Numbered from the stretch's first letter, positions 2,672 to 31,138 are shown. The stretch is 32,000 bases of DNA from Synechocystis sp. PCC 6803 substr. PCC-P (GCF_000284455.1 NC_017039.1:720001-752000); one strand, 5' to 3'. A program made the numbers and translations. The notes: generated by a model from the letters alone, not told the origin.

Positions 2672-3964
2672 GTGTTAGACCTCAAGCAAATTCGTGAAAA
2701 TCCCACCGCTATTCAAAATCGCCTCAATCAAAGAGGGGGCGGGGCAAGTTATGATCTCGAACCCATTTTGGCGATCGCCGCTGAGCAAAAAGCCAAGGAA
2801 AGCGAACGAACTGTACTGCAAAGTCGTAGCAATGAAATCGGCAAATTAATTGGCCAAAAAATTGGTCAGGGAGCCGATCCTAAAGGGGAAGAAATTCAAA
2901 CTTTACGGGAAGAAGGTAATAGTTTAAAAATCCAGTTAGCAGATTTAGAACCCCAGGAAAAAGATCTTAAAGAGCAGTTGCAAAAGCTGTTACTAGAACT
3001 GCCCAATTTGCCTTGTGAAACCACTCCCATAGGAGCGAGTGAAGCTGATAACATCGAAGTAAAACGTTGGGGAGATCAATACTTAAAAGCAGAAACAGTA
3101 GGAATTTTACCCCATTGGGAAATCGGTGAAAAATTAGGCATTATTGACAGTGAGCGGGGAGTTAAAGTAGCCCAGAGTCGTTTTATTTCCCTCATGAAAG
3201 CTGGAGCTGCCTTGGAAAGGGCTCTGATTAACTTTATGCTGGAACGTCACATTGGCGTGGGCTACCAGGAGATTATGCCTCCCATTTTAGTTAACAGCGA
3301 TTCCCTGCTGGGCACAGGGCAATTACCCAAATTTGCTGAGGAAAGTTTTCAATGTCGGGGGGATGACCTCTGGCTTATTCCCACCGCCGAAGTGCCAGTG
3401 ACTAACCTTTATCGAGACGAAGTTTTAGACTTAGAACAACTCCCCATTAAACATTGTGCTTACACTCCCTGTTTTCGGCGGGAAGCTGGTAGTTACGGCC
3501 GGGATACCAAAGGGTTGATTCGTTTACATCAGTTCAATAAAGTCGAATTAGTTAAATTAGTTAAACCAGAGGAATCCGCCGCTGAACACCAAGCCCTAGT
3601 TGCGGATGCAGAAGCTATTCTCCAAGCCCTAGAATTACCCTATCGAGTGGTGGAATTATGTACCGGTGATTTAGGTTTTGGAGCGGCTAAATGCTACGAC
3701 TTGGAAGTTTGGTTACCATCGGCTAACACCTACCGGGAAATTTCCAGTTGTTCTAACTTCCACGATTTCCAAGCCCGTCGGGCCAACATTCGCTACAAGG
3801 AAAAGGGCAAAAAAGGCACCCAATTTGTTCACACTCTCAACGGTTCCGGTTTGGCGATCGGGCGCACCATGGCGGCAATTTTAGAAAATTATTACGAACC
3901 CAGCAGCGGTCAGGTTAAAGTTCCCGTCGTCCTGCAGGATTTCCTCAAACGGGATTATCTTTAA
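2672..3964 (+). CDS. serS: Seryl-tRNA synthetase
   Basis: 430 aa with GTG start. [12 protein letters not shown]-terminus and a coiled-coil arm. Class II motifs are present: [28 protein letters not shown] and [19 protein letters not shown]. Confidence 0.95.
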
Positions 3965-13407: not shown

Positions 13408-13525
13408 GCAATCACCGGGTTGATAAGGTCGACAAAATAGAAAGAAATCTTCCGGGCGATCGATAAAGTGGGGAATTTGAGCTAACCTTTGATGGCACTA
13501 TGTGGAGGTCAATCACTGGATAGCC

Positions 13526-14533
13526 ATGGCGGATTGTTTTTTTGTCACTGGGGGCACGGGCTTTGTCGGGGCTAATTTGGTCCGCCATCTGTTGGAGCAG
13601 GGTTATCAGGTGCGGGCGTTGGTGCGGGCTTCCAGCCGTCCCGATAATTTGCAAAATTTACCCATAGATTGGGTCGTGGGAGATTTGAATGATGGGGATC
13701 TTCACCAACAAATGCAAGGCTGTCAGGGTCTCTTCCATGTGGCGGCCCACTATTCCCTTTGGCAAAAAGACCGGGAAGCTCTTTACCGCAGTAATGTTTT
13801 AGGCACGAGAAATATCCTGGCCTGTGCCCAAAAAGCAGGCATTGAACGCACTGTCTACACCAGTTCCGTGGCGGCGATCGGCGTTAAAGGGGACGGTCAA
13901 AGGGCGGACGAAAGTTATCAAAGTCCAGTGGAAAAGTTAATTGGAGCCTATAAACAGTCCAAATATTGGGCGGAACAGGAGGCATTGACAGCGGCCCAGC
14001 AAGGCCAAGACATTGTCATTGTTAATCCCAGCACTCCCATTGGCCCCTGGGATATTAAACCTACTCCCACGGGAGAAATAATTCTGCGCTTTCTGCGGCG
14101 ACAAATGCCAGCCTACGTTAACACTGGCTTGAATTTAATCGATGTGCGGGATGTGGCGGCGGGGCATCTCCTGGCTTGGCAACGGGGAAAAACTGCTCTG
14201 ACCAGAGGCGATCGCTATATTTTGGGCCATGAAAATATCAGTCTTCAAGGGATTTTGGCCCATCTATCTACCATTACGGGGTTACCCGCCCCGAAAAATA
14301 CGGTTCCCCTTTGGTTACCCTTGACCTTTGCCTGGGTGGAAGAAAAAGTTCTGGCTCCCCTGGGGCGATCGCCTTCGGTGCCCATGGATGGGGTTAAAAT
14401 GTCCGCCCAGGAGATGTATTACGATGCTAGTAAAGCGGTGCAGGAATTGGGGCTACCCCAGTCCTCTATCAAACAGGCTTTGGCAGATGCGGTGCATTGG
14501 TTCCAAAACCATGGCTACGTTAAGACCCAATAA
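13526..14533 (+). CDS. NAD-dependent epimerase/dehydratase family protein (dihydroflavonol-4-reductase-like / hopanoid-associated sugar epimerase-like)
   Basis: ORF 13502..14533. I prefer the ATG at 13526 (MADCFFVTGGTGFVGANLV Rossmann motif) over the GTG at 13502. YKQSK catalytic Y-x3-K is present. Confidence 0.85.
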   Translation: MADCFFVTGGTGFVGANLVRHLLEQGYQVRALVRASSRPDNLQNLPIDWVVGDLNDGDLHQQMQGCQGLFHVAAHYSLWQKDREALYRSNVLGTRNILACAQKAGIERTVYTSSVAAIGVKGDGQRADESYQSPVEKLIGAYKQSKYWAEQEALTAAQQGQDIVIVNPSTPIGPWDIKPTPTGEIILRFLRRQMPAYVNTGLNLIDVRDVAAGHLLAWQRGKTALTRGDRYILGHENISLQGILAHLSTITGLPAPKNTVPLWLPLTFAWVEEKVLAPLGRSPSVPMDGVKMSAQEMYYDASKAVQELGLPQSSIKQALADAVHWFQNHGYVKTQ

Positions 14534-14539
14534 TTCTAA

Positions 14540-14649
14540 GAACGTGTTTGGAAAGTTTTATTCTGCCCCCCAAATCCCCCAATACTGGGGGACTTTCACT
14601 CAGTTTCCCCCCAAATTTTGGGGGCCAGGGGGGCTTTTAAAACAGGCTC
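14540..14649 (+). mobile_element. MITE-like element, copy A (110 bp)
   Basis: TIRs are GAACGTGTTT (14540..14549) and AAACAGGCTC (14640..14649, rc GAGCCTGTTT). They are flanked by TAA at 14537..14539 and 14650..14652. The interior holds G/C hairpins: cccccaatactggggg, ccccccaaattttggggg, and an outer gcccccc/ggggggc clamp followed by tttt. Near-identical to copy C apart from a 14-nt indel. Confidence 0.8.
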
Positions 14650-14765
14650 TAAGTCCCTTGTCGTTGCACTGGAACGGAGAAGATTTTCCTGTAGTTCCAG
14701 ATGATGCGTCGCTATCATCCCATCTGAATTCAACCCATACTTGATTCCAATTTTTATCATTTTCC

Positions 14766-14960
14766 ATGACTATTCAACTAACTGTACCCACCATTGCCTG
14801 TGAAGCCTGTGCCGAAGCTGTGACCAAAGCCGTGCAAAATGAGGATGCCCAAGCAACGGTGCAAGTGGATTTAACCAGCAAAAAAGTCACCATCACCAGT
14901 GCTCTGGGGGAAGAACAACTACGAACGGCGATCGCCTCGGCGGGCCATGAAGTTGAGTGA
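14766..14960 (+). CDS. atx1: Copper metallochaperone Atx1
   Basis: 64 aa. MTIQLTVPTIACEACAEAVTKAV carries the CxxC metal site on a ferredoxin-like HMA fold. It matches the Synechocystis Atx1 sequence as I remember it. Confidence 0.9.
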   Translation: MTIQLTVPTIACEACAEAVTKAVQNEDAQATVQVDLTSKKVTITSALGEEQLRTAIASAGHEVE

Positions 14961-15085
14961 AGTGTAACAGAGGTCGAGACAGTGACGATTTTTCGTTCCG
15001 GCTGTTCTGGTTTGCATTTATAGCCTAACCCTCTACAATCGAGGGAGTATTTTGCAACCCGTATGTGTGTGTGAGGCTCTGAACA

Positions 15086-16321
15086 ATGCAGTCCCAATCG
15101 AGGATAAAAGACCTGAAACGTAAGCCTGGTCAAGGTGCCAATCTCTACAATCTGTCTTTGGGCGGGCTGATCATTATCGGTGGTTTGGTTTGGTCTTTAC
15201 CCGGTAGCACCACTGGCAATTTGGAAATTGAACAATCTGCCCCCGCTCCCGTCACCCCAGCCGCTCCCCCAGCTCCGGTGAAAGCTACGGCCCCCGTGCC
15301 AGTCCAATCGACTCCGGACTCCAAGCCAGCAGCGCCTAGATTACCTGCTCCCACTATTGCACCCATTTCTAGCCAGCCAGCCCAAATACGCCAGGGTTTG
15401 CAAAAAAATAGTTACATTGATGCGGCTCCCCAGGGTACAGCGGCGGCCCCCAATCTGCCCACCCGGACAGAAGTGGAGTTCGTTCCCCGTTCTGGGCAAC
15501 AGGCTCCCCTCAATACCCGTTATCCCGCCGCCAATCGCAGTGCTAACCGTGCCCCCGTGGCCCGTCAGCAATCTAGTCCGGTTAATCCCCCCAAGGCGAT
15601 CACCCCCCGTCGGCAGAGCATCAATGCCCGTAATGCGGCTCCCGGTAACAATTCTGTTTCTCCCCTCAATCCTCTAAATATTCAGCCTAAAATCAGTTCC
15701 CTGGCGATCGGGCAACCAGTGGGGTCCAATCAGGTTTTCAGCCTTGATCCTATGGCCAATCGGGGTATTCAAATCGCCCTAGCTCCTTTACCGGAATACA
15801 GTAGGGCCACGGGTTTGTACTCTACCCAAGGTCAGCCCAACCAAGGGACTGATCTGATGTTCCCCGTTGCCGGCGTTAACCCCATTACCTCCGCCTTTGG
15901 TTGGCGAATTCACCCCATCAGTGGCCAAGGGCGTATGCACAATGGCACCGACATCGGCGCTCCCATGGGCACTCCTGTACTGGCCGCCTATGACGGAATA
16001 GTAGCAGCGGCCCAATGGTCCGGCGGCTATGGCTTAATGGTTACCCTACGCCACTTAGATGGAACCCAGGAATCTCGTTATGCTCACCTATCAGAAGCTT
16101 TTGTAGAAAGTGGACAACAGGTGACTCAGGGTGAAGTGATCGGTCGAGTTGGTAGCACAGGCTTCTCCACTGGGCCTCATTTGCACTTTGAATGGCGACA
16201 CCTAACCAATGATGGTTGGGTTGCAGTGGATGCAGGCCCCCATTTGGAAGCCGCTTTGGCTAATTTGATGGCGGCCCAAAAATATGCCCAATCCCAAGCT
16301 GACTCCCAGCCCCAAAGTTAA
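15086..16321 (+). CDS. Membrane-anchored M23 (LytM-type) peptidoglycan endopeptidase with Pro/Ala/Gln-rich linker
   Basis: 411 aa. N-terminal TM segment (LSLGGLIIIGGLVWSL), a low-complexity Pro-rich region of about 200 aa, and a C-terminal M23 domain with HNGTDI and GPHLHFEW. Confidence 0.85.
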   Translation: MQSQSRIKDLKRKPGQGANLYNLSLGGLIIIGGLVWSLPGSTTGNLEIEQSAPAPVTPAAPPAPVKATAPVPVQSTPDSKPAAPRLPAPTIAPISSQPAQIRQGLQKNSYIDAAPQGTAAAPNLPTRTEVEFVPRSGQQAPLNTRYPAANRSANRAPVARQQSSPVNPPKAITPRRQSINARNAAPGNNSVSPLNPLNIQPKISSLAIGQPVGSNQVFSLDPMANRGIQIALAPLPEYSRATGLYSTQGQPNQGTDLMFPVAGVNPITSAFGWRIHPISGQGRMHNGTDIGAPMGTPVLAAYDGIVAAAQWSGGYGLMVTLRHLDGTQESRYAHLSEAFVESGQQVTQGEVIGRVGSTGFSTGPHLHFEWRHLTNDGWVAVDAGPHLEAALANLMAAQKYAQSQADSQPQS

Positions 16322-16372
16322 ACGACGGATATCTATAATTAAACAACCGATGGATTTCCCATTGTTTCAATT

Positions 16373-16405
16373 CCCTGAGTGCATCCAACTCGGGGATTTT
16401 TTATT
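16373..16405 (+). terminator. Rho-independent terminator after the M23 peptidase gene
   Basis: Stem ccctgagt (16373..16380) / actcgggg (16388..16395), 8 bp including one G-U, with a 7-nt loop. Followed by a-tttttt-attt. Confidence 0.65.
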
Positions 16406-16535
16406 TGACTATGGCAACAGCCTAGACAATTCCAACAAAATGTAATCAATGTCAATTTCCCCTACCTAAGTCGACAGAAAAAACTCCGTCGGTCATCTCG
16501 TCTTAGTTTACATTGGGGTAATTGTTCAATCACGA

Positions 16536-18909
<2,374 letters not shown>

Positions 18910-19009
18910 AGGGGAAGGCAAAATACAGGGAGTTCTTGCTTGGATTCTACCCCGATCGCCTAAAAAGTCTGAAAAATCCGGCCAAAAATGCTGTCAATTT
19001 AGTCCAAAT

Positions 19010-19714
19010 TTAAATATCCCCCTCTAAACAATAGGATTCGTAGAGATTGAGATACTCCATGGCGTTTTGCACTGCTTGGGGGCGTAAATTACGCTTTTCC
19101 GGAGGAAAATTGGCCAACACATTGGCCGGTTCTAGATAAAGGGCACACCAAGAAATACCAAACCAGGCTTGCCCCGTCACCAGGGAGCGGACAAATTGCA
19201 CTGTGAAATTCTCCGGCAGGGCGTAGGCCGCCTTAGACATTAGTTGCACTGGGGTTGATCGCCAAAGGTCATTGCCACCCTGGGTACTGAGGGGGCCAAG
19301 AGTTTGATAATCGTCCAGGGCCAGGAGGTAACCGACAATGAATAATTCTTCCGGGGTCAAATCCCCCAAATCCATATGGGTAGGGGGTTTGTCATTTTTT
19401 CTGGCCAGGGCCACGAGGAACTGTTCGGCGTTGTTGCTGCCGTCAATATTCCAGCCCAAGGCATTAATCACTGCGGCCTTTTCCCCCAAGGGGCGATCGC
19501 CAAGGAGAAAATCTACAATGAGGGGAGACATAATCCGATACTGCTGGGCCCATTCCACGGCGGCAATGTCGGAGTAAGCTCCAGCTAAATCCGTGGAAGT
19601 CAGGGGACTATCGGCCCGGCTGGCCAGGGGGTCTAAAGCTAGAATGGAGAGCCCCGCCAGACCCAAGCTGGTAATCCAGGAGGCAACCTTTTTTGGCAAT
19701 AAATGCGTCTGCAT
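19010..19714 (-). CDS. Secreted hypothetical protein
   Basis: ORF 19010..19741. I prefer the ATG at 19714, giving MQTHLLPKKVASWITSLGLAGLSILALDPLASRA, a signal peptide. No recognised domain. Confidence 0.65.
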   Translation of the reverse strand: MQTHLLPKKVASWITSLGLAGLSILALDPLASRADSPLTSTDLAGAYSDIAAVEWAQQYRIMSPLIVDFLLGDRPLGEKAAVINALGWNIDGSNNAEQFLVALARKNDKPPTHMDLGDLTPEELFIVGYLLALDDYQTLGPLSTQGGNDLWRSTPVQLMSKAAYALPENFTVQFVRSLVTGQAWFGISWCALYLEPANVLANFPPEKRNLRPQAVQNAMEYLNLYESYCLEGDI

Positions 19715-19782
19715 AGAAATACCTGATTCTGATTTCACCACTGTATCGGTCTAAAATTGGACTGCTTTTGCCCTAATTTGCC

Positions 19783-22032
19783 ATGGCTACCCGTTCCCGC
19801 AAAGCCCCTTCTGCCCCTAAAAAAAGTCAAACTAACCTTTCCCAGGGTGGCAACAGCCAAAAGGTAGCCCTCAAAAAAGGCTCCAGGGTGGCCAAAATTC
19901 GTCTGCAGGAATCGGGCAAAAATTCCCAATCCCGGCGGGTATTTCCCCTCCTTGGCGATCGTTATTTTCTCGGCCGCAGTTCCAGTTGTGATATTCAACT
20001 GCAAAATCCCCTCGTGAGTCAGACCCATTGTTCCCTGCGGCGGGACCCTGACCATCCTAACCAGTTTTTTATTCGAGATGAAGGCTCTAGCAACGGCATT
20101 TATCTGCAACGTCGCCGCCTAAAAAGCTATCGTCTGCAGCATGGTGATGAAATTACCCTGGGGCCACCGGAATTGGTGGATGTGCCCAAACTTGTTTATT
20201 TCAACCCGCCGCCATTGTGGTTAAAGGGAATGCGCACTTTTTTTTCCACTGGTATTCTGTTTTTTCTCATCATCACCGGGGCGATCGCCTGGCAATGGAG
20301 CAAAATTCCCGTTAAACCCATGCCCAGTGGCGTGACGGGGCCAGTTAAGGTTTATGCCGGGGACGGGGTGACGGAAATCAATCCGGTTAAGCAAGAAATT
20401 CACCGGGAATTTGATAATTTAAGTGATTTTTCGCCCTATTTACCCCAAGCGGTCATTGCTTCGGAAGATACTCGCTTTTACTGGCATTTTGGCGTTGATC
20501 CCTACGGTTTGGGCCGAGCGATTTACATTAACCTCCAGGACAGGGATGTGAAACAGGGAGCCAGCACCCTTACTCAACAGTTGGCCCGCAGTTTGTTCAG
20601 TGAAGTAGGGCGGGAAAATACGGCGGGGCGTAAAATTCGGGAAATGTTTGTCGCCCTCAAGTTGGAAGCGGTGTATAGCAAAGACGACATTTTAAAAGCC
20701 TATTTGAATCGAGTTTACCTAGGGGCTGGTAATTACGGCTTTGAAGATGCGGCCCAGTTTTATTTCGACAAATCTGCCCAGGATTTGGATGTGGGGGAAG
20801 CGGCCACCCTAGTGGCAATGTTGCCAGCTCCCAATCTTTACAACCCCGTGCAGGATTATCAAACCTCCGTACAATTGCGGAATCGGGTTATTGAGCGCAT
20901 GGCCATGTTGGGCATGATTGACGAACAGGAAGCCAACCGGGCTAGGCGATCGCGCATTCAGGTCAGTCCCAAGGCTACCCAAACCCTTTCCCAACGGCAG
21001 GCTCCCTACTTTTACGGTTACATTTTTGGCGAATTAAACCATTTACTAGGCGAAGATGTGGCCAAAGAAGGCAATTTTGTCGTGGAAACTAGCCTTAACT
21101 TAAAAATGCAGGCCCTAGCGGAAAAAAGCTTACAAAAATTCCTCACCACGGAGGGAAAAAAGTATGCGGTTTCCCAGGGGGCAGTGGTTACCCTGGACAG
21201 TCGTACCGGGGCAGTTTTGGCCATGGTGGGGGGCAAAAGTTACCGGGAAAGTCAATTTAATCGGGCGAGCCAAGCCCAACGGCAACCAGGCTCAACGTTC
21301 AAGCTTTTTGCCTACACAGCGGCGATCGCCAAGGGAGTGAGCACTAATCAGGCTTTTGAGTGTGGCCCTTTCACCTGGCAGGGTCAAAACTACAAGCCCT
21401 GTGAACGGAGCGGGGCAGCCCCGGCCATTACCTTTGCGGAAGGTTTTGCCCAATCGGAAAATGTGGTGGCCCTACGGGTGGCCCAAACGGTGGGCTTAGA
21501 CGAAATTATTGCCCTGGCTAAGGATTTTGGCGTTAACTCTTCCCTGGTGAAAGAACCAGGTTTGGTGCTGGGGCAGAGTGAAGCTAGGGTGCTGGAGATG
21601 ACCGGAGCCTACGGGGCGATCGCCAATGGAGGTGTTTGGAACCGGCCCCACGGCATTGTTAACATCCGGGATGGGGGGGATTGTCCCGATCCAGAGCAAC
21701 TAAAAAGCTGTCGGGAAGTTTATCAGGTCAGCCAGGATGGCCGGGGACAAAAACAGGTGGTTTCTCCGGCGATCGCCGCCACCATGACCCAACTTTTACA
21801 AGCCGCTGTGACCAATGGCACAGGCAAAGCTGCGGACATTGGCTACGGAACCGCGGGCAAAACCGGCACCACGGATAAAGCAGTGGATTTATGGTTTATT
21901 GGCTTTCTGCCCCAAAAAAATCTGGTCACCGGCATTTGGTTAGGCAATGACGACAGTAGTCCCACCCAAGGCAGTAGTGGTCTGGCCGCTACCCTTTGGG
22001 GTCAATATATGCGACAAATTGCTTCCTTGTAG
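19783..22032 (+). CDS. Class A penicillin-binding protein (GT51 transglycosylase + transpeptidase) with N-terminal cytoplasmic FHA domain
   Basis: 749 aa. FHA signature: LGRSSSCDIQL..VSQTHCSL..IRDEGSSNGIYL..GDEITLG. TM segment: FFSTGILFFLIITGAIAWQW. GT51 motifs: EDTRFYWHFG, GASTLTQQLAR, RKIREM. Transpeptidase motifs: STFK, SEN, KTGT. Confidence 0.9.
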   Translation: MATRSRKAPSAPKKSQTNLSQGGNSQKVALKKGSRVAKIRLQESGKNSQSRRVFPLLGDRYFLGRSSSCDIQLQNPLVSQTHCSLRRDPDHPNQFFIRDEGSSNGIYLQRRRLKSYRLQHGDEITLGPPELVDVPKLVYFNPPPLWLKGMRTFFSTGILFFLIITGAIAWQWSKIPVKPMPSGVTGPVKVYAGDGVTEINPVKQEIHREFDNLSDFSPYLPQAVIASEDTRFYWHFGVDPYGLGRAIYINLQDRDVKQGASTLTQQLARSLFSEVGRENTAGRKIREMFVALKLEAVYSKDDILKAYLNRVYLGAGNYGFEDAAQFYFDKSAQDLDVGEAATLVAMLPAPNLYNPVQDYQTSVQLRNRVIERMAMLGMIDEQEANRARRSRIQVSPKATQTLSQRQAPYFYGYIFGELNHLLGEDVAKEGNFVVETSLNLKMQALAEKSLQKFLTTEGKKYAVSQGAVVTLDSRTGAVLAMVGGKSYRESQFNRASQAQRQPGSTFKLFAYTAAIAKGVSTNQAFECGPFTWQGQNYKPCERSGAAPAITFAEGFAQSENVVALRVAQTVGLDEIIALAKDFGVNSSLVKEPGLVLGQSEARVLEMTGAYGAIANGGVWNRPHGIVNIRDGGDCPDPEQLKSCREVYQVSQDGRGQKQVVSPAIAATMTQLLQAAVTNGTGKAADIGYGTAGKTGTTDKAVDLWFIGFLPQKNLVTGIWLGNDDSSPTQGSSGLAATLWGQYMRQIASL

Positions 22033-22050
22033 TTAACTGGGTTGATCAAA

Positions 22051-22181
22051 AAGCTTGTTTAAAAAGTCATGGTCCGCCCCCTAAATCGACCCACTAAAGC
22101 TCCGGCTCTGGCAAGTTTGGGGGAATTTGAACACTGTTCCCCCCAGAGTTGGGGGGCTAGGGGGGCTTTTAAAACACGTTC
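22051..22181 (+). mobile_element. MITE-like element, copy B (131 bp, variant)
   Basis: Right TIR AAACACGTTC (22172..22181, rc GAACGTGTTT) followed by TAA at 22182..22184. Left TIR is degenerate, AAGCTTGTTT (22051..22060), preceded by AAA. It shares the core ccgccccctaaatcgacccactaaagctccgg and aggggggcttttaaaaca with copy C. The middle section differs (ccccccagagttgggggg hairpin). Confidence 0.7.
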
Positions 22182-22789
22182 TAAACCTTGGCCAGGATGA
22201 AAACATTGCCTTCATTACCACGGCTGATGCGTAAATCTTCGTCTAAATAGGTGATTTCTAGCCAAGCGGCATTGTCCCGACCGGGCAAATTAAAATCCGC
22301 TGGCAGAAAGCGTTTGCCCGTGGAAATTTGTTGGATGAATTTTAAAGGAGATTGATAATTGAGGATTTTTTGTAGGCCGAGAATGGAACGCTCAAATTTG
22401 ACTTCAATGCGTTTGTCGGAAACAGGGATAAAGGAAGCCACCACGGACACTAAACTTTCCAAGAAAGGGATGCCTTCAATTTCCGCCAAATTTACCACCC
22501 TTGACCCCGCCACGTCTATGTACTGATAAATTTGCCCTAATTGCAAAAGGGGAAGGCGATTCAAGCCCAAAATACTTTGGCTGCTGGTGTAGAGGAGTCG
22601 CCAATTACCATCCAGCAAATTTTTCTCCTGGAGTGGTTTGGGATGGGGATTATAGTCTTCCAATTTTTCCACCGCAGAAAGGATGGCCACCCGGTCCCGA
22701 TCTGATGCCAATAGCCCCCGGTTTTTGCCGGCGATCGCCTCTAGGAGATTGGTTTTAAAATCCATATTGGCATCCATACTATTGGGCAC
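22181..22789 (-). CDS. Fibrillin / plastid lipid-associated protein (PAP) family
   Basis: 202-aa ORF with a GTG start; alternative ATGs at 22777 and 22765. PAP_fibrillin-like pattern: KTNLLEAIAGKNRGLLASDRDRVAILSAVEKLE...GNWRLLYTSS. The stop TAG (22181..22183) spans the MITE junction. Confidence 0.8.
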   Translation of the reverse strand: MPNSMDANMDFKTNLLEAIAGKNRGLLASDRDRVAILSAVEKLEDYNPHPKPLQEKNLLDGNWRLLYTSSQSILGLNRLPLLQLGQIYQYIDVAGSRVVNLAEIEGIPFLESLVSVVASFIPVSDKRIEVKFERSILGLQKILNYQSPLKFIQQISTGKRFLPADFNLPGRDNAAWLEITYLDEDLRISRGNEGNVFILAKV

Positions 22790-22880
22790 GCTAAATCCGT
22801 TAAAAATTTTATTGGGTAGTTACACCAATTATCCCATGTTGGCCGGGACTGGCGATCGGGATTCCCAGAGCATAAAGAAC

Positions 22881-24734
22881 CTAGGCTGATTGCAACCAAT
22901 TGAGGGTTTCAGGAAAACGGGGAATGGACTGAATTAATTTTTTGGTGTAAGCGCTCTGGGGATTTTCGATAATTTCCTGGGCCGTATTGATGGGTTCCGC
23001 CAGTTGCCCCCGGTTCATCACCATAATGCGATCGCCCATGAAACGAACAACGCTCAAATCATGGGAAATAAAAATATAGGTCAGTTGTAAATCCCGTTGT
23101 AATTCCTTCAGCAGATTTAATACCTGGGCTTGCACCGACACATCCAGGGCAGAAACGGACTCGTCACAAATGATAAAACGGGGATTGAGCGCCAAGGCCC
23201 GAGCAATGCAAATCCGTTGCCGTTGGCCCCCAGACAATTCGTGGGGATAGCGGTTAAACCATTGGGGACTAATACCCACCCGTTCCAACAGTTCCGCCAC
23301 CCGTTGCCGTTGCTGCTTAGTGGATTGTTTAGGCTCGTGAATAATCAGTGGCTCTTGGATGGCCCGACCAATGGTCATGCGGGGATTAAGGGAATTGTAG
23401 GGATTTTGGAAAATAATTTGCATTTCCCGCCGTAAACGTCGCCATTGTTGGGATTTTTCCGGTAAAGCAGCCACATTTTGTCCATCAAAGATAATTCGAC
23501 CCGTTTGAATGGGAGTTAAGCGCAATAAAGCCCGAGCTAAGGTGGATTTACCGCAACCGGATTCCCCCACTAACCCCAGGGTTTCCCCCGGATAAACCTG
23601 GAAGGAAACATCATTAACTGCTTTGAAAACGGATTTTTTCCCAAATAGTCCCCCCTGCCCGTAACTAACGGTTAGGTTTTGCACTTCCAGCAGAGGGGGT
23701 TTGGCTTGCAATTGAGCCAGGCGATCGCTTTCCTGGGCCGGAGTAATAACTTGATAACTGGGAGGCGGACCATCAGCATTGAGAAAATCCCCCACCGTGG
23801 GCAAATGGTCTAACTGTATTTCCAAGCGAGGACGACAGGCCAATAAACCTTTGGTGTAGGGATGTTGAGGACTATGCAAAATCTGTTCCTTTAGCCCCTG
23901 CTCAACAATTTCCCCCCGGTACATCACCGCCACCCGGTCCGCAATTTCGTTAATCACCCCCAAATCATGGGAAATAAAAATTAGGGACATTTCCTGATGT
24001 TGTTTGCACAAATCCCGCAGGAGCCGCAAAATTTCCGCCTGCACTGTCACATCCAAAGCAGTGGTTGGTTCATCGGCAATGAGTAGTCGGGGATTGGCGG
24101 AAATGGCCATGGCAATCATCACCCGTTGCAGTTGGCCGCCGGATAGTTCATGGGGATAACGTTTGAGAAAACTTTGTTTCCGCTGTTGGATATAACTAGC
24201 TAAATTTTGGGTTACTTTGCCCCTAGGCTGGGCCTGTTCTTGGGCTAAAAATTCTTCTTCCAGCACTTCATCTTTGGGCAATACCCTCACTTCCTGCAAA
24301 AGGGCGATCGCCTGGTTTTGAGCTTCTTCCTGGGTAACGTTTTGGTGGAGGCGAATTGCTTCAATAATTTGAAAGCCAATGGTATAAACCGGATTAAGGG
24401 AACTCATTGGCTCCTGGAAAATCATGGCAATTTTGCCGCCCCGGTACTGACGCTTGTCCCCCTCTGGCAGAGCAACTAGGTTGACAGGGGAACTCTGGGC
24501 CTGGGCAAAAAAATCAATTTCACTGCTAGGTTCCACCCAGCCTGGCTTGGGCACCAACCCCATAATGCCCAGGGAAGTGACGGATTTACCGGAACCAGAT
24601 TCCCCCACAATGCCGAGGATTTCCCCCCGCTCTAACTCAAAATCAACCCCTTTGACGGCCAACAATTTTTCCCTGGTATCAGCATCGGGGAAAGCAATTT
24701 CCAGTTGACGCACAGCCAAAATCAGGTCATTCAT
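22881..24734 (-). CDS. ABC transporter ATP-binding protein with two fused ATPase domains (Dpp/Opp D-F type)
   Basis: ORF 22881..24833 has a GTG start. I prefer the ATG at 24734 (MNDLILAVRQLEIAF). Two Walker A motifs (GESGSGKS, GESGCGKS), two LSGGQ signatures and two Walker B motifs. No permease or binding-protein gene is adjacent. Confidence 0.85.
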   Translation of the reverse strand: MNDLILAVRQLEIAFPDADTREKLLAVKGVDFELERGEILGIVGESGSGKSVTSLGIMGLVPKPGWVEPSSEIDFFAQAQSSPVNLVALPEGDKRQYRGGKIAMIFQEPMSSLNPVYTIGFQIIEAIRLHQNVTQEEAQNQAIALLQEVRVLPKDEVLEEEFLAQEQAQPRGKVTQNLASYIQQRKQSFLKRYPHELSGGQLQRVMIAMAISANPRLLIADEPTTALDVTVQAEILRLLRDLCKQHQEMSLIFISHDLGVINEIADRVAVMYRGEIVEQGLKEQILHSPQHPYTKGLLACRPRLEIQLDHLPTVGDFLNADGPPPSYQVITPAQESDRLAQLQAKPPLLEVQNLTVSYGQGGLFGKKSVFKAVNDVSFQVYPGETLGLVGESGCGKSTLARALLRLTPIQTGRIIFDGQNVAALPEKSQQWRRLRREMQIIFQNPYNSLNPRMTIGRAIQEPLIIHEPKQSTKQQRQRVAELLERVGISPQWFNRYPHELSGGQRQRICIARALALNPRFIICDESVSALDVSVQAQVLNLLKELQRDLQLTYIFISHDLSVVRFMGDRIMVMNRGQLAEPINTAQEIIENPQSAYTKKLIQSIPRFPETLNWLQSA

Positions 24735-24910
24735 AGATGTTTGGAGACGGGGAAAGTCGCTAACGGCAGGTGGTGACAGTTCTTTTGCAGGGACATCATC
24801 AAAACAGACAAAATGTGTCCTAAGATTCGCCACTCAAACTCTAGCAAACAGAGCCGCAAAAACCACGGTAGCGTCAATTTCCCCTTACCTCCATCGACAT
24901 ACCTTAACCT

Positions 24911-25387
24911 TTAATCGGACTCCACCGGGACAAAATCCAAATGGTTAAATAGGGTGGTGACAAAGCTAAACAGTAAAAATGGCAACGAAAGCACCAAGAC
25001 CAGACCCACTGTGGCTAGGGCATAGACCGGCCGGGTACTACTGGCCAGGGCCAAGGCGGATGCGAGGGAAAGGAAAATTACAATTAGCCAGACAATGATT
25101 TGGCCATAAATATCCCCAAAGGATAGGGTACAGACCATGCGATATTTGGGTAAGTCTCTTTCCATCATTGAAAAATCCTCTGTTGTGTATGGGGAAACGT
25201 CAACCCCTGCCAGGGCTAATAACATTGACCAATGGTCAAAGCGGCAATTGGCCAAAATTCTAAAGGATATTTCCGTTAATGATGTTAAGTTTTGAGACAG
25301 GGTTAATTGGGGATTAAATTTTGTCCCTGCCCCAAAGCCCAAAACCATTGTTGTTATTATGCTGGGAGTCCATGCGGCGATCGCCAA
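24911..25387 (-). CDS. Hypothetical membrane protein
   Basis: 158-aa ORF with an apparent TTG start; start uncertain, internal ATG at 25348. Two clear C-terminal TM spans (IIVWLIVIFLSLASALALA, ALATVGLVLVLSLPFLLFSFV). Confidence 0.5.
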   Translation of the reverse strand: MAIAAWTPSIITTMVLGFGAGTKFNPQLTLSQNLTSLTEISFRILANCRFDHWSMLLALAGVDVSPYTTEDFSMMERDLPKYRMVCTLSFGDIYGQIIVWLIVIFLSLASALALASSTRPVYALATVGLVLVLSLPFLLFSFVTTLFNHLDFVPVESD

Positions 25388-25439
25388 AGGTTTGTCCTAG
25401 AGTTCTTGAATCTTAAAAATTTCTCCATTCTCCATTTCC

Positions 25440-26225
25440 ATGAAACGACGAAAATTTATTCGTACCGCTGGAGCCGGGTTGCTGGCCGTTGCTGGAGTCC
25501 AAATTGGCGATCGACTCAGACCAGCCACCGCCCAAGCTAGCTCTGGTTTACAGGTGGAGTGGTTGGGCCATAGCGCTTTCCTCTTTTCGGCTAACGGTTT
25601 CCGGATCTTGGCTAATCCTTTCCGGGCCATCGGTTGCACTAAGGGATTTCGTTTGCCCAAGGTGCAGGCAGATTTAGTCCTCATTAGCTCCCAACTGTGG
25701 GATGAAGGGGCAGCGGAGAATTTACCGGGAAACCCGAGAATTTTGTTTGAACCGGGCAGTTACGACATTGGCGGCATCCAATTCCAGGGCATCAGTGCGC
25801 CCCACGATCGCCTGGGAGGAAGAAGATTTGGCCAAAATGTGGTCTGGCGTTGGAGTCAGGGAGGAATTCGGATAGTACATATGGGGGGAGCCGCTTCTCC
25901 CATCACCGAAGAACAAAAAATCCTTTTGGGCAGCCCCGACCTAGCCCTAATTCCCGTGGGGGGCGGGCCCAAAAATTACGACGCCGCCGAAGCCAAGGCC
26001 GCCATGGCCATACTCAATCCCCGCATGGTAGTGCCCACCCAATACGCCACCCCCGCCGCTGACCGGGGCAACTGTGACCTCCAGACCCTGCAACCGTTTT
26101 TGGATTTGGTGGAAGGCATGAATGTCCAACGCATCAATGGCAATAGCCTTTCCCTCCGGGCCAATAATCTCCCGGCGGAAGGGACCCTAATCCGCATCTT
26201 CAGTGAACAAGGATTGTTGGTTTAG
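25440..26225 (+). CDS. Tat-exported MBL-fold (Lactamase_B_3 / UlaG-like) hydrolase-family protein
   Basis: 261 aa. Twin-arginine signal MKRRKFIRTAGAGLLAVAGV...ATAQA. The VEWLGHSAFLFSANGFRILANPF start is typical of this MBL-fold subgroup. Confidence 0.7.
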   Translation: MKRRKFIRTAGAGLLAVAGVQIGDRLRPATAQASSGLQVEWLGHSAFLFSANGFRILANPFRAIGCTKGFRLPKVQADLVLISSQLWDEGAAENLPGNPRILFEPGSYDIGGIQFQGISAPHDRLGGRRFGQNVVWRWSQGGIRIVHMGGAASPITEEQKILLGSPDLALIPVGGGPKNYDAAEAKAAMAILNPRMVVPTQYATPAADRGNCDLQTLQPFLDLVEGMNVQRINGNSLSLRANNLPAEGTLIRIFSEQGLLV

Positions 26226-26280
26226 GGAGCTTTGGTAAACCTTCAAAGAAGGAGCTCGGACTTTTTAGCAGACTTTCTAA

Positions 26281-26404
26281 GAGCCTGTTTTAAAAGCCCC
26301 CCTGACCCCCCAAATTTTGGGGGAAACTGAGTGAAAGTCCCCCATATTGCCGGAGCTTTAGTGGGTCGATTTAGGGGGCGGAATAAAACTTTCCAAACAC
26401 GTTC
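26281..26404 (-). mobile_element. MITE-like element, copy C (124 bp, inverted relative to copy A)
   Basis: Plus-strand GAGCCTGTTT (26281..26290) and AAACACGTTC (26395..26404). They are flanked by TAA at 26278..26280 and 26405..26407. The reverse complement aligns base-for-base with copy A except for a 14-nt extra segment and a few substitutions. Confidence 0.8.
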
Positions 26405-27120
26405 TAAAGGGAACTTTGGGCCGCTTTTCGTTGCTCCGCTAGATAAGTAAATACGGACTTATCGCCAATATCTGGGTCAAGGGGTTGCATTACCTTTCTG
26501 GCCACAAAGATGAGAAATAGAACGCTGGCTGAGACCAGTCCCCCTTTGGCCACGGTCAACGGCAATATTCCGGCCAAATGTCCCAACAGTAACAACGGAA
26601 TAATGGCGGTTAGAAATTTAGTTTCCAAACGATTAAAACAAAATGCTTCCTTGAAGAAAATTCCCGTCAGGGCGGCAAAAGTAAAGCCGATCCCAAGAAT
26701 GGTCCAGGGTTGATCATAGACTGTAGTCACTAGAATCCCTGGGTAGGCAAAACTGAAATAGAGGGCCGCCGTGGTACCGATCGCCCAAAAAATTTGCAAA
26801 GTGCGGTGGAGCACCGCTAGGTAAATGTGAATGGTCCAGAGACTCAACCCCAAACCCCCGGTCATCAGCCAAAAACAAGCCGTGGCTAGGTGAAAGTTAA
26901 CTGCCAAAGGCTGAAAAGGTTGGGCTAAAGCTAGGGCCACCCCCAAACTAAATCCCCCGGCCGCCAAAGCTAGCCCCGTGCGGTAGAGAATTACTTCCCG
27001 GCGATCGTGGTCATTGACGGTGAAGGGGCCAAATTGCCCTTGGTAGGTGGGGTTAACAGAGGTACTTTCTCGCATAATCGTTGCTCCAGAATCAGCACAG
27101 TTCAGACCATTTTCAGCCAT
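26404..27120 (-). CDS. Conserved cyanobacterial multi-pass membrane protein (DUF2301-like, tentative)
   Basis: 238 aa with ATG start. About six hydrophobic spans follow a soluble N-terminus (PTYQGQFGPFTVNDHDRREVILYRTG). The stop TAG (26404..26406) spans the MITE junction. Confidence 0.7.
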   Translation of the reverse strand: MAENGLNCADSGATIMRESTSVNPTYQGQFGPFTVNDHDRREVILYRTGLALAAGGFSLGVALALAQPFQPLAVNFHLATACFWLMTGGLGLSLWTIHIYLAVLHRTLQIFWAIGTTAALYFSFAYPGILVTTVYDQPWTILGIGFTFAALTGIFFKEAFCFNRLETKFLTAIIPLLLLGHLAGILPLTVAKGGLVSASVLFLIFVARKVMQPLDPDIGDKSVFTYLAEQRKAAQSSL

Positions 27121-27334
27121 GGATAACCATTAATCCTAATTATCCCAGGCCTCCCCCTCCATCAGGGGATTTTATGGCGATCGCCATTGCTATTGGTACC
27201 AAAACAAGGATAGAATCTATGCAATCTAAAACTTAAATTACATAACTAAAGGTAAATGATTGCCAAACTATTATTCGGGCCTGATTGGTCTGGGTTTGTG
27301 CTGGTCTAAACGAATAAATAAGGAGGAGCGGGCC

Positions 27335-27679
27335 ATGGTCGCCCTAGAGGCTTGTATTTTTGTGACTGTGATCATCGGCTTTTTAGGTCTGATTTATAAA
27401 TCTAATGTGTTTATGAAAATCATTGCCATGGACGTGATGGGCACTGGAGTCATTGCCTACTATTGCCTGATCGCTTCCCGCACTGGCTTTCTTACTCCTA
27501 TTGTCACTAGCCAGGAATCCACCATTCCCTATGCCGATCCCGTTCCCCAAGCAGTTATCCTCACAGCCATTGTGATTGGTCTATCGATTCAGGCGTTGAT
27601 GTTGGTGGCCACCATGAAACTGGCCCGGGAAAATCCCACCCTAGAAGTAAAGGCGATTGAAAAACAGTACTGGCCATGA
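27335..27679 (+). CDS. mrpC: Mrp antiporter subunit C (NuoK/4L-like), copy 1
   Basis: ORF 27260..27679. I prefer the ATG at 27335, preceded by AGGAGG at 27321..27326. Three TM spans and a C-terminal KLARENPTLEV pattern. The stop overlaps the next start (ATGA at 27676). Confidence 0.85.
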   Translation: MVALEACIFVTVIIGFLGLIYKSNVFMKIIAMDVMGTGVIAYYCLIASRTGFLTPIVTSQESTIPYADPVPQAVILTAIVIGLSIQALMLVATMKLARENPTLEVKAIEKQYWP

Positions 27680-29139
27680 CCCTATTTGCAGTTTCAGCGG
27701 AATTTAATGCGGCGCCCTGGGCCACGGTGGTCATTTGCTTGGCTTTGATGGCGGGCTTCACTGGCTATTTATTGCCTGCCACCATTCGTTTTTTGACTTT
27801 GGCCGTCTGTTTTGGCACTGGATTTTTAGCCTATTTGGGATTTTCTTTGCCGGAAGCCCAGTCTTGGTATTTGTTAGACAGTTTTGGCGTTGTTTTTCAA
27901 CTGGATGCCCTATCGGGTTATTTCCTCTTGACCAATGCCCTGGTGACTTTGGCGGTGTTGGTCTATTGCTGGAATACCGGCCGCTCAGCCTTTTTTTATG
28001 CCCAACTGATCATTCTCCACGCTAGCCTTAATTCCGCTTTTCTTTGTGCGGATTTTATGAGTCTTTATGTGGCCCTGGAAGTGGTGGCGATCGCCGCTTT
28101 TTGCCTGATGACCTATCCTAGGGAACCCCGAATTATTTGGCTGGGACTGCGCTATCTACTGCTGAGCAACACTGCCATGTTGTTTTATTTAATCGGGGTA
28201 GCACTGGTTTATAAAACTAATCAATCCTTTGCTTTTAGCGGTTTAACCCAAGCTCCCCCAGAGGCGATCGCCCTGATATTTTTGGGATTGTTGACCAAAG
28301 GGGGCATTTTTTTGGCGGGACTGTGGTTGCCCCAAACCCATGGGGAAGCGGCCACACCAGTTTCGGCCATGCTATCAGGGGCAGTGGTTAAAGCAGGAGC
28401 TTTGCCCCTATTGCGCTGTGCTTTATTGTCCGATCAACTACTATTATTAGTACAAATTTTGGGGGTAGCCACGGCGTTATTTGGAGTGGTCTATGCCATG
28501 CTGGCCAAGGACAGTAAGCGAATGTTAGCATTTCACACCGTTTCCCAAATGGGCTTTGTGTTGGCGGCCCCCATTGCTGGCGGTTTTTATGCTCTCAGCC
28601 ACGGTTTAGTGAAATCTAGCCTCTTCCTGTTGGCGGGGAATTTGCCCAGTCGGGACTTCAAAGTTCTGAAGAAAACTCCCATTGCCGCTGGTTTTTGGGT
28701 TCCCCTGCTTCTGGCCAGTTCTTCCATTGCCGGTTTTCCCCTACTGGCGGGCTTTGAAGCGAAAACCCTGACCCTCAAAGGATTGCCCCCCTGGTTGGCG
28801 ATCGCCTTAAACATTGCCGCGGTGGGTACAGCCATTTCCTTTTCCAAATTCGTTTTCCTGAAACCAACCTTTGTCGGTAAAACCTATCCCCTGGGCTTAG
28901 GCCTAGCGTTGGTGGTGTTACTCGGCGGTTTGGCCGTGGGTAATGTGGTTTACTGGCAAGCCTTTACCCCCAGTAATTTAATCAAAGCTACCCTGACCTG
29001 CGTGGTGGGGGCAGGACTATATTGGGTCGTGGTCAAAAGGCTAACCCTAAAACTGCCCGATGAAGGAGAACAGGTTGACCATCTGCTCGGCATGATGAGC
29101 ATCAGTTTAACCATTCTCTTTGCCTGGATTTTAGTATGA
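27676..29139 (+). CDS. mrpD: Mrp antiporter subunit D (NuoN/ND2-like), copy 1; legacy name ndhD5 from memory
   Basis: 487 aa, polytopic. Antiporter-like family residues: TM5 Glu (YVALEVV), TM7 Lys (LLTKGG), WLPQTHGEAATPVSAMLSGAVVKAG. Confidence 0.85.
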   Translation: MTLFAVSAEFNAAPWATVVICLALMAGFTGYLLPATIRFLTLAVCFGTGFLAYLGFSLPEAQSWYLLDSFGVVFQLDALSGYFLLTNALVTLAVLVYCWNTGRSAFFYAQLIILHASLNSAFLCADFMSLYVALEVVAIAAFCLMTYPREPRIIWLGLRYLLLSNTAMLFYLIGVALVYKTNQSFAFSGLTQAPPEAIALIFLGLLTKGGIFLAGLWLPQTHGEAATPVSAMLSGAVVKAGALPLLRCALLSDQLLLLVQILGVATALFGVVYAMLAKDSKRMLAFHTVSQMGFVLAAPIAGGFYALSHGLVKSSLFLLAGNLPSRDFKVLKKTPIAAGFWVPLLLASSSIAGFPLLAGFEAKTLTLKGLPPWLAIALNIAAVGTAISFSKFVFLKPTFVGKTYPLGLGLALVVLLGGLAVGNVVYWQAFTPSNLIKATLTCVVGAGLYWVVVKRLTLKLPDEGEQVDHLLGMMSISLTILFAWILV

Positions 29140-29650: not shown

Positions 29651-31138
29651 ATGAATTTTCCCACGGCGATCGCCCCTAACAATTTATTAATTGCCATCGT
29701 CGCCCTCCTGGTCTTGGCACTGATGGGAGCCTTTGGGGGCTATCTGTTTCGTCCCCTGGTGCGGCCCTCGGCCCTACTGATGACCCTGGGCACCATTCTC
29801 TTGGCAGCGGTGGGTTTTGCCCTCCCCAATGCCCAGCAATGGCAGTTAATGGATAGGTTTGGCATTCTCTTGCAGTTGGACAATTTAGGGAGTTACTTTC
29901 TGCTTACCAATGGTTTAGTTACCCTAGCGGTGTTACTTTACTGTTGGGCTTCCCCAAGGACAACCTTTTTTTATGTCCAATTAATGGTACTCCACGTTAG
30001 TCTCAATGCTGCTTTTTTATCTACGGATTTAATCAGTTTATACGTCTGTTTAGAGGTGGTGGGTTTATCTTCCTTTTTATTAATTATTTACCCCCGCCAG
30101 GCCGCCAGCAGTTGGATTGGGTTGCGTTATTTGTTTGTTACCAACACGGCCTTGTTGTTTTATTTAATCGGGGTGATGTTGGTTTATCAGGCCACTAACT
30201 CCCTGGATTTCCAAGGTTTAGCCACTGCCCCCTACGAGGCGATCGCCCTTATTTTTTTAGGACTGTTAATTAAGGGGGAAATTTTTCTTTCTGGGTTATG
30301 GTCACCCCAAACCAGTAGCATTGCCAGTGCTCCTGTGGCGGCCCTGTTGTCGGGCATTGTGGTTAAAGCGGGAATTTTACCCCTGTTGCGCTTTGCTTCC
30401 CTGTCGGAAAGATTGGCCATGATGGTGTGGGGTCTGGCCATTGCCACCGCTCTGTTGGGCATGGGCTTGGGCATGTTTGCCAGGGATAGTCGGCGCATTT
30501 TGGCCTACAGCACCATTTCCCAAATGGGTTTTATTTTGGTAGCCCCGGCGGTGGGGGGATTGTATGCGTTGACCCATGGCTTAGCTAAGGCTTGCCTATT
30601 TTTGTTGGTGGGCAGTCTGCCGGAACGAGATTTGGATAAACTCCAGGCCCAACCTATTTCCTACAAATTATGGTTGCCCATGGTATTGGCCAGTTCCTCT
30701 ATCATTGGCTTACCCATCCTGGCGGGCTTTGAAGCTAAAACCCTGACCCTGGAGACCCTCAGCCTCAATGAACTGCCCTGGACGGGAATTTTAATGAACT
30801 TGGCGGGGGTGGGCACAGCAATTATTTTGGCCAAATTTATTTTCCTCATCCCTAGCTTTGACAAGAATGTTGACCTGGACAAATCCCCCTGGGGCCTGTT
30901 TTTAGCGGTGCTTCTTCTGCTGGGGGCTTTAACCTTGGGCAATGTCATTTATCCCGAAGCTTTTTCCATGGAGAACGGCATCAAAGCCACCGCTAGTTTT
31001 CTGCTGGGTTCAGCCATTTACTGGTGGGGTTTGCGGAAAATTCCTTGGCAACCACCTGATTGGGGGGAACGCTTGGATCATCTGATCGGCACCATGGCCA
31101 TAATGTTGATGTTACTTTTCAGCTCGGTATTAATATGA
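29651..31138 (+). CDS. mrpD: Mrp antiporter subunit D, copy 2; legacy name ndhD6 from memory
   Basis: 495 aa. Collinear with copy 1 with no indel over the first 230 residues or so. 44 of 70 positions were identical in a stretch I aligned by hand. It keeps the TM5 Glu and the TM7/TM8 Lys residues. Confidence 0.85.
   Translation: MNFPTAIAPNNLLIAIVALLVLALMGAFGGYLFRPLVRPSALLMTLGTILLAAVGFALPNAQQWQLMDRFGILLQLDNLGSYFLLTNGLVTLAVLLYCWASPRTTFFYVQLMVLHVSLNAAFLSTDLISLYVCLEVVGLSSFLLIIYPRQAASSWIGLRYLFVTNTALLFYLIGVMLVYQATNSLDFQGLATAPYEAIALIFLGLLIKGEIFLSGLWSPQTSSIASAPVAALLSGIVVKAGILPLLRFASLSERLAMMVWGLAIATALLGMGLGMFARDSRRILAYSTISQMGFILVAPAVGGLYALTHGLAKACLFLLVGSLPERDLDKLQAQPISYKLWLPMVLASSSIIGLPILAGFEAKTLTLETLSLNELPWTGILMNLAGVGTAIILAKFIFLIPSFDKNVDLDKSPWGLFLAVLLLLGALTLGNVIYPEAFSMENGIKATASFLLGSAIYWWGLRKIPWQPPDWGERLDHLIGTMAIMLMLLFSSVLI

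Follow-up and report, generated by a model that had tools for sequence, protein, structure and literature searches.

MITEs with T-N-A target duplications at gene 3' ends of Synechocystis sp. PCC 6803 and their junctions with stop codons

Insertion sequences of the IS1031 group (IS5 family), such as IS1031A of Komagataeibacter and ISLrh of Lacticaseibacillus, prefer the target 5'-TNA-3' and produce exclusively 3-bp repeats (PMC12016507). The same exclusive 3-bp T-N-A duplication is found in the MITE family described here, and the TIR of ISLrh (GAACCTGTCT...; PMC12016507) starts, like the ends of this family, with GA(A/G)C.TGT. Tourist-like MITEs such as mPing offer a further likeness, as they are short TIR elements with a 3-bp TAA or TTA duplication that are mobilized in trans. 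The PIF/Harbinger transposase is related to IS5. Tourist and mPing (PIF/Harbinger) belong to eukaryotes and depend on two proteins, ORF1 and TPase; we liken them to the present family in mode of action, not in membership. Precise excision of mPing restores the empty site (PMC2836001). QMITE1 and QMITE2 of Coxiella burnetii and other bacterial MITEs known from gene 3' ends are located mainly in 3' UTRs and intergenic DNA, and overlaps of 1 to 3 bp with the C-terminal ends of functional genes have been described (PMC5896051; review PMC10969869). These MITEs have other parents and variable duplications of 7 to 11 nt, and a stop-like target does not systematically give rise to their overlaps.

We analyzed a stretch of 32,000 nt from Synechocystis sp. 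PCC 6803 (the window), which holds exactly three copies of one MITE of 110 to 131 bp, a count on which reading of the sequence, a TIR pattern search and a family HMM agreed. The TIR pattern matched six times in the window (1.28 matches expected; none of 100 shuffles reached six), and the HMM, run over the whole window, detected no copies or fragments beyond the three, designated A, B and C:

14537-14539 and 14650-14652: left and right TAA duplications of copy A, target ttcTAAgtc (C-TAA-G)
14540-14649, plus strand: MITE copy A, 110 bp, TIRs GAACGTGTTTGGAAAG and GAGCCTGTTTTAAAAG, nhmmer E value 5e-28
22048-22050 and 22182-22184: duplications of copy B, the left one decayed (AAA for the expected TAA), the right one intact (TAA)
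22051-22181, plus strand: MITE copy B, 131 bp, left TIR decayed (AAGCTTG...)
26278-26280 and 26405-26407: TAA duplications of copy C
26281-26404, minus strand: MITE copy C, 124 bp

All six ends carry the 16-nt TIR GARCNTGTTTNRAAAG, one of them with a single mismatch, and the flanks are TAA/TAA for copies A and C and AAA/TAA (decayed) for copy B. The copies are small, non-coding and multicopy, with TIRs at both ends; compared with insertion sequences of the IS1031 group they are short (110 to 131 bp) and without coding capacity, and their interior is rich in C and G runs. The preliminary description of this region had taken them for MITEs with a 3-bp duplication, and the TIRs, the TAA flanks and the 3-bp flanks of the wider family all confirm this. 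An Rfam scan of the whole window gave no family above threshold. The HIP1 octamer GCGATCGC is abundant in the window, and exact matches to the protein of its HMA-domain gene locate it on the PCC 6803 chromosome (AP012277.1 and CP129343.1, at about 733-736 kb). Another repeat, in direct orientation, links 27700-28800 with 29700-30750 (70 to 78% identity, constant spacing of 1975 nt) and corresponds to two tandem paralogous Proton_antipo_M-type genes.

The genes next to the three copies, and the stop codons found at the junctions, are as follows:

13502-14533, plus strand: NAD-dependent epimerase/dehydratase gene (PF01370, E value 4.5e-34), own stop TAA at 14531-14533
14766-14960, plus strand: HMA-domain (Atx1-like) gene of 64 aa, 3' of copy A
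19783-22032, plus strand: penicillin-binding protein (PBP) gene with FHA, transglycosylase and transpeptidase domains, stop TAG at 22030-22032
22181-22789, minus strand: PAP/fibrillin gene (PF04755, E value 3e-71), ending ...AAG GTT TAG
22181-22183, minus strand: TAG stop of the fibrillin gene, its G being the last base of the element (22181) and its TA coming from the duplication
25440-26225, plus strand: Lactamase_B_3 gene, facing the DUF2301 gene in convergent orientation across a spacer that holds copy C
26404-27120, minus strand: DUF2301 membrane-protein gene (PF10063, E value 4e-56), ending ...CTT TAG
26404-26406, minus strand: TAG stop of the DUF2301 gene, formed by the terminal G of the TIR and the TA of the duplication

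The PBP and fibrillin genes are convergent, and the PBP stop lies 15 nt ahead of the decayed flank of copy B. On the minus strand the junctions read ..GTT TAG AACGTG.. for the fibrillin gene and ..CTT TAG AACGTG.. for the DUF2301 gene, and the earlier claim that both TAG codons are rebuilt from the TA of the duplication and the G of the TIR holds as written. Copy A begins just past the end of the epimerase gene, with its duplication 3 nt downstream of the gene's own TAA. The duplicated TAA at 14537-14539 does provide, as had been claimed, a second in-frame stop one codon on, but it is not the actual stop of any gene. Two Logan short-read contigs with the HMA gene (L202 and L203) start some 120 to 145 nt upstream of this gene, roughly at copy A; if the break is at the repeat, the element would be underrepresented in short-read assemblies.

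Relatives of PCC 6803 allowed us to compare occupied and empty sites. The genome GCA_015207935.1, which resembles Synechocystis salina, is collinear with the window from 16.3 to 29.1 kb, and its DUF2301 protein is 92% identical. Copy C is missing from this genome, in which the site reads ...agttcc CTT TAG gaaatctgcc with exactly one TTA, and a metagenome contig (L110, 94% identity) carries copy C at the same site as the window, a presence/absence polymorphism with an intact empty site. The empty allele implies that the TAG of the DUF2301 gene and the TTA target existed without the element, and the proposal that this copy entered a pre-existing in-frame TTAG stop is thereby supported. In the metagenome contig (copy at 3217-3340) the gene-side TIR is GAGCCTG, compared with GAACGTG in the window. 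With these two changes it mirrors the opposite end perfectly, which may have come about by conversion (between the ends or between copies) or by a second insertion into this site. In Synechocystis PCC 6714 (CP007542.1; L107 3160-3230), the DUF2301 orthologue is four codons shorter and has TAA as its stop; 17 nt past it is a degenerate MITE-like remnant (GAGGGTGTTCAAAAAGCCCCC...), and the next gene is unlike that of PCC 6803.

Copy B, with the same decayed AAA flank, is shared by the S. salina-like genome (contig L198) and by a contig of 98% identity (L103); among these close relatives, both of which carry the insertion, no empty allele was found. Since the S. salina-like genome has copy B and lacks copy C, B is the older of the two. 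Fibrillin orthologues with 87% and 79% identity, located in other genomic contexts, have no element and stop at the same codon position (AK-x-stop), as TGA, indicating that the stop already lay at this position before copy B arrived. That this stop was originally TAG is suggested by a single base, the G following the decayed flank of copy B.

To delimit the family, the TIR pattern was searched in one genome per species, which yielded 102 blocks and about 34 complete copies delimited by paired TIRs. The census comprised about 48 family copies, mostly from the cyanobacterial MAG MFD09964.bin.2.150 and from S. salina and not from the PCC 6803 chromosome. Altogether, related genomes and plasmids contained more than 45 copies, with a burst in one MAG, where 18 copies share at least 96% identity with the consensus; further copies are located on plasmids of PCC 6803 (pSYSA and pSYSM), PCC 6714, PCC 7338, Synechocystis sp. 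B12 and Picosynechococcus. A scan of metagenomes for the TIR pattern retrieved 85 loci, nearly all of them chance matches or distant families, with few family copies but with autonomous insertion sequences. Short elements of 138 to 237 bp with GAGC.TGTTT..AAAG termini and T-N-A duplications were also seen (L006/L124, L059/L123/L147, L118, L141 and L111/L160) in contigs labelled Dehalococcoidia or Gottesmanbacteria and in unassigned metagenome contigs; these appear to be IS1031-type MITEs with near-identical ends across distant phyla.

Identical 3-bp flanks were present in 26 of 34 family copies and were always T-N-A, with no other matching triplet: TAA in 14, TTA in 7, TCA in 3 and TGA in 2. 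Position -1 is C in 58% of the symmetrized sites, mirrored by G after the duplication, from which a preferred target yC|TWA|Gr can be derived for the family, although 4 of the 26 sites have neither the C before nor the G after. TTAG, which had been given as the target, is therefore too narrow a description, given the TGA and TCA duplications and the four sites without either flank.

A likely source of transposase is located in the same organism. On plasmid pSYSM of PCC 6803, positions 38789-39659 (NC_005229.1; L204 231-1101) contain an 871-bp insertion sequence with an annotated IS5 family transposase (WP_223211235.1), flanked by a TTA duplication and bounded by TIRs GAGCGTGTTTGAAAAG and GAAAGTGTTTGAAAAG, the same as the MITE ends; a MITE copy is found about 3.5 kb away on the same plasmid, at 43192-43296. 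Three more autonomous elements combine the same TIR with a T-N-A duplication (L135, 871 bp; L137, 859 bp; L170, 924 bp with two ORFs), and their transposases match Pfam DDE_Tnp_1 and DUF4096 and NCBIfam transpos_IS5_3 (E value 1e-70). The L137 protein is 51% identical over 97% to annotated IS1031A-family transposases (tblastn). The parent elements resemble the IS1031 group in size (857 to 924 bp), in having one ORF or two frameshifted ORFs, in the DDE_Tnp_1 and DUF4096 domains and in the 51% identity to IS1031A-family proteins. Because the ends are shared, the duplication is T-N-A, the IS5 elements measure 859 to 924 bp and the IS1031 rule is obeyed, the window copies are, judged by sequence, non-autonomous MITEs of the IS5 family, probably derived from an IS1031-type element. 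The pSYSM insertion sequence is probably their autonomous partner, which would mobilize them in trans. We found no name or description of this Synechocystis MITE family in the literature, where the TIR sequence strings matched unrelated primers only; the family is new and apparently unnamed, and it behaves as IS5-type elements are known to do.

The preliminary description had further suggested that a target preference for TTAG, placing an in-frame stop at each junction, steers the element to gene 3' ends. We evaluated this with a census in which genes were long ORFs (a crude rule) and a copy was taken to coincide with a stop when the stop was the duplication itself (TAA or TGA) or was composed of the duplicated TA and the terminal G. 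Junctions were scored on the occupied sequence, as removing the element with its right duplication misclassifies copies with a decayed left flank (copy B of the window, L023 and L042). By this measure 7 of the 34 copies with paired TIRs coincide with a stop (L004, L023, L042, L082, L035 and copies B and C of the window). Without the window copies, 5 of 31 (16%) do so, or 6 of about 45 (13%) when 20 extra single ends, equivalent to about 14 elements, are included. Pfam matches confirm as true genes the four ORFs of 269 to 982 codons at junctions outside the window, which encode YlmH/S4, AcrB, a histidine kinase and a radical-SAM protein.

As a null expectation, every T-N-A site in the same loci was classified, and we took the share of gene-sparing sites that overlap a stop with the protein preserved. 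This share was as follows:

all T-N-A sites: 7%
YTNAR or CTNAG sites: 8 to 9%
CTWAG sites: 13%
sites weighted by the flank profile of the non-stop copies: 12%

Across counting schemes, then, only 13 to 21% of the copies coincide with a stop, against 7 to 13% expected, and the excess outside the window (13 to 16%) is not significant (binomial P of 0.06 to 0.38). In the window alone, 5 to 6% of the gene-sparing T-N-A sites overlap a stop, and two out of three copies doing so has a P of about 0.01, calculated post hoc. On the scale of this census of relatives, stop junctions fall within what T-N-A insertion predicts, and copies occur at non-TTAG sites and in no special relation to stops, so the stop-directed steering that had been suggested is not upheld in its strong form. 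One of the copies (L042 1013-1137, in MAG MFD09964.bin.2.150) is placed just past an orthologue of the window PBP gene, in opposite orientation to the copy in the window; the gene on the far side encodes a radical-SAM protein, its TAG once more formed at the junction, and the element marks the exact point at which synteny with the window is lost. This could be either an independent insertion beside the PBP orthologue or a rearrangement at the MITE. The ...KVI* end of the neighboring gene might suggest a fibrillin orthologue, which was rejected because Pfam identifies the gene as radical SAM; the site is thus not the locus of copy B.

The position of the copies relative to genes was not random. 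Observed numbers and those expected from profile-weighted sites were the following:

at a stop codon: 7 of 34 observed, 4.0 expected
0 to 30 nt downstream of a stop: 8 of 34 observed, 5.7 expected
31 to 60 nt downstream of a stop: 8 of 34 observed, 3.6 expected
more than 60 nt downstream of a stop: 10 of 34 observed, 13 expected
divergent spacer: 1 of 34 observed, 7.8 expected

The clustering at gene 3' ends that had been noticed in the window is seen in the census as well, with 23 of 34 copies (68%) at a stop or at most 60 nt downstream versus about 39% expected, and 1 of 32 in divergent spacers versus 23 to 27% (P of 5e-4). Genes contain 74 to 79% of the T-N-A sites, and no copy (0 of 34) lies inside a predicted gene, the genes having been called on the occupied sequence. 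The enrichment is about 1.7-fold across the first 60 nt past genes, and the stop class shares it equally, with nothing extra. Among the young copies, the 18 in one MAG with at least 96% identity to the consensus, 2 (11%) are at stops and 11 are within 60 nt; among the older ones 5 of 16 are at stops. A retention filter would be expected to raise the share in older copies in this way, although the numbers are small. The 3' bias fits an insertion preference or survival after selection alike.

In our view, with a probability of about 80%, we are dealing with an IS5-derived MITE of the ordinary kind: stop triplets happen to fall within its target, and selection filters out its harmful insertions. 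A DDE transposase acting in trans would bind the TIRs (GARCNTGTTTNRAAAG) and insert the element at 5'-TNA-3', by preference at yC|TWA|Gr, with 3-nt staggered cuts that would give rise to the T-N-A duplication. On one strand such a triplet may itself be TAA or TGA, and the other strand, given the preferred flanking G, reads T-TAG, so that natural stop codons would be a regular subset of the targets. The duplication would restore the first two or three nucleotides of the stop and the invariant terminal G of the element would give the third, making TAG, so the protein would remain unchanged. Insertions at stops or in short 3' spacers would be harmless and persist, and those in genes or promoters would be lost. 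The two junction stops of the window would then very probably be a by-product of target chemistry and purifying selection, with no stop-seeking mechanism involved. Some observations sit less comfortably with passive retention, namely a pooled rate (17 to 21%) numerically above the null, the window P of about 0.01 and a 3' bias already visible in young copies (11 of 18), which is also compatible with an insertion preference.

Some of these observations would also speak for an active mechanism, in which the transposase recognizes TTAG or some property of gene 3' ends, be it the stop context, the DNA of terminators or the topology of convergent transcription, and stops act as safe havens. The concentration of 23 of 34 copies within 60 nt, the near absence from divergent spacers (1 of 32 against 23 to 27%), the bias among 18 near-identical young copies and the window P could all be explained in this way, as could L042 if it is an independent insertion, in opposite orientation, beside the orthologous PBP gene end. 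However, stop junctions (13 to 21%) are not significantly above the 7 to 13% expected, their 1.7-fold excess is just that of the whole zone from 0 to 60 nt, TGA and TCA are also duplicated and 4 of 26 sites are without C or G flanks. In addition, on pSYSA the copies occupy a spacer between divergent genes, and unrelated elements of the IS1031 group obey the same T-N-A rule (PMC12016507). We consider active targeting decidedly unlikely. Far less credible still is pure coincidence, that is, insertion anywhere with two copies abutting stops by luck, which the small sample of three copies in the window might suggest. T-N-A in all 26 copies with matching flanks and the enrichment of C and G at -1 and +1 are at odds with it, as is the empty allele, which shows entry exactly into the TTA of CTT-TAG; coincidence without target specificity is refuted by the duplication census.

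The retention of copies could also be positive, if those at 3' ends were kept for a host function (as 3'-UTR stabilizer, terminator of convergent genes or sRNA) and not merely for being harmless. The main reason for considering this is the conservation of copy B, compared below with the S. salina-like genome, together with that of copy C:

copy B, 22051-22181 versus 14828-14958 of contig L198 (S. salina-like): 93.8% identity
right half of copy B, PCC 6803 versus the S. salina-like genome: 96% identity
coding sequences flanking copy B, same comparison: 87.5 to 88.5% identity
third codon positions of the genes flanking copy B: about 70% identity
other intergenic spacers between genes, same comparison: 60 to 100% identity
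copy C, window versus contig L110: 94.3% identity
third codon positions, window versus contig L110: 83% identity

A neutral relic would not be expected to be as conserved as copy B, in which constraint (exaptation), gene conversion or some mutational effect confined to this region could be at work. Copy C likewise exceeds the third positions around it, and the element contains C-run and G-run hairpins. Yet the conservation could also stem from gene conversion or from a locally low mutation rate, and the structural evidence does not point to a functional RNA. When copies B and C were folded with their flanks, B was no better than shuffled sequences (z of 0.02) and C only weakly better (z of -1.75), a scan of 14000-27500 for terminators and promoters found no terminator-like site inside any copy, and Rfam gave no match. 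An intrinsic terminator or a REP-like structured RNA was rejected on these grounds. The three orthologues of copy B are too few for an analysis of covariation. We thus regard it as unlikely that 3'-end copies are kept for a host function, and equally so that some of them have been domesticated, with copy B under selection as part of a 3' UTR, as a terminator or as an RNA element, and the 3' concentration of the family reflecting functional retention or a real preference for gene ends.

The conservation of copy B is nevertheless the sole lead of wider interest, as it would mean, if true, that a MITE has been exapted to serve at the 3' end of genes. As a whole, the results reveal no new targeting mechanism, and they name a probable autonomous partner on pSYSM. 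They also provide a worked example, complete with an empty allele, of a T-N-A transposon landing on a stop codon and leaving the protein unchanged. For the annotation of PCC 6803, a much-used model, they indicate that several gene ends and short convergent spacers hold an IS5-derived MITE, and that the last base of some stop codons of this organism belongs to a mobile element.
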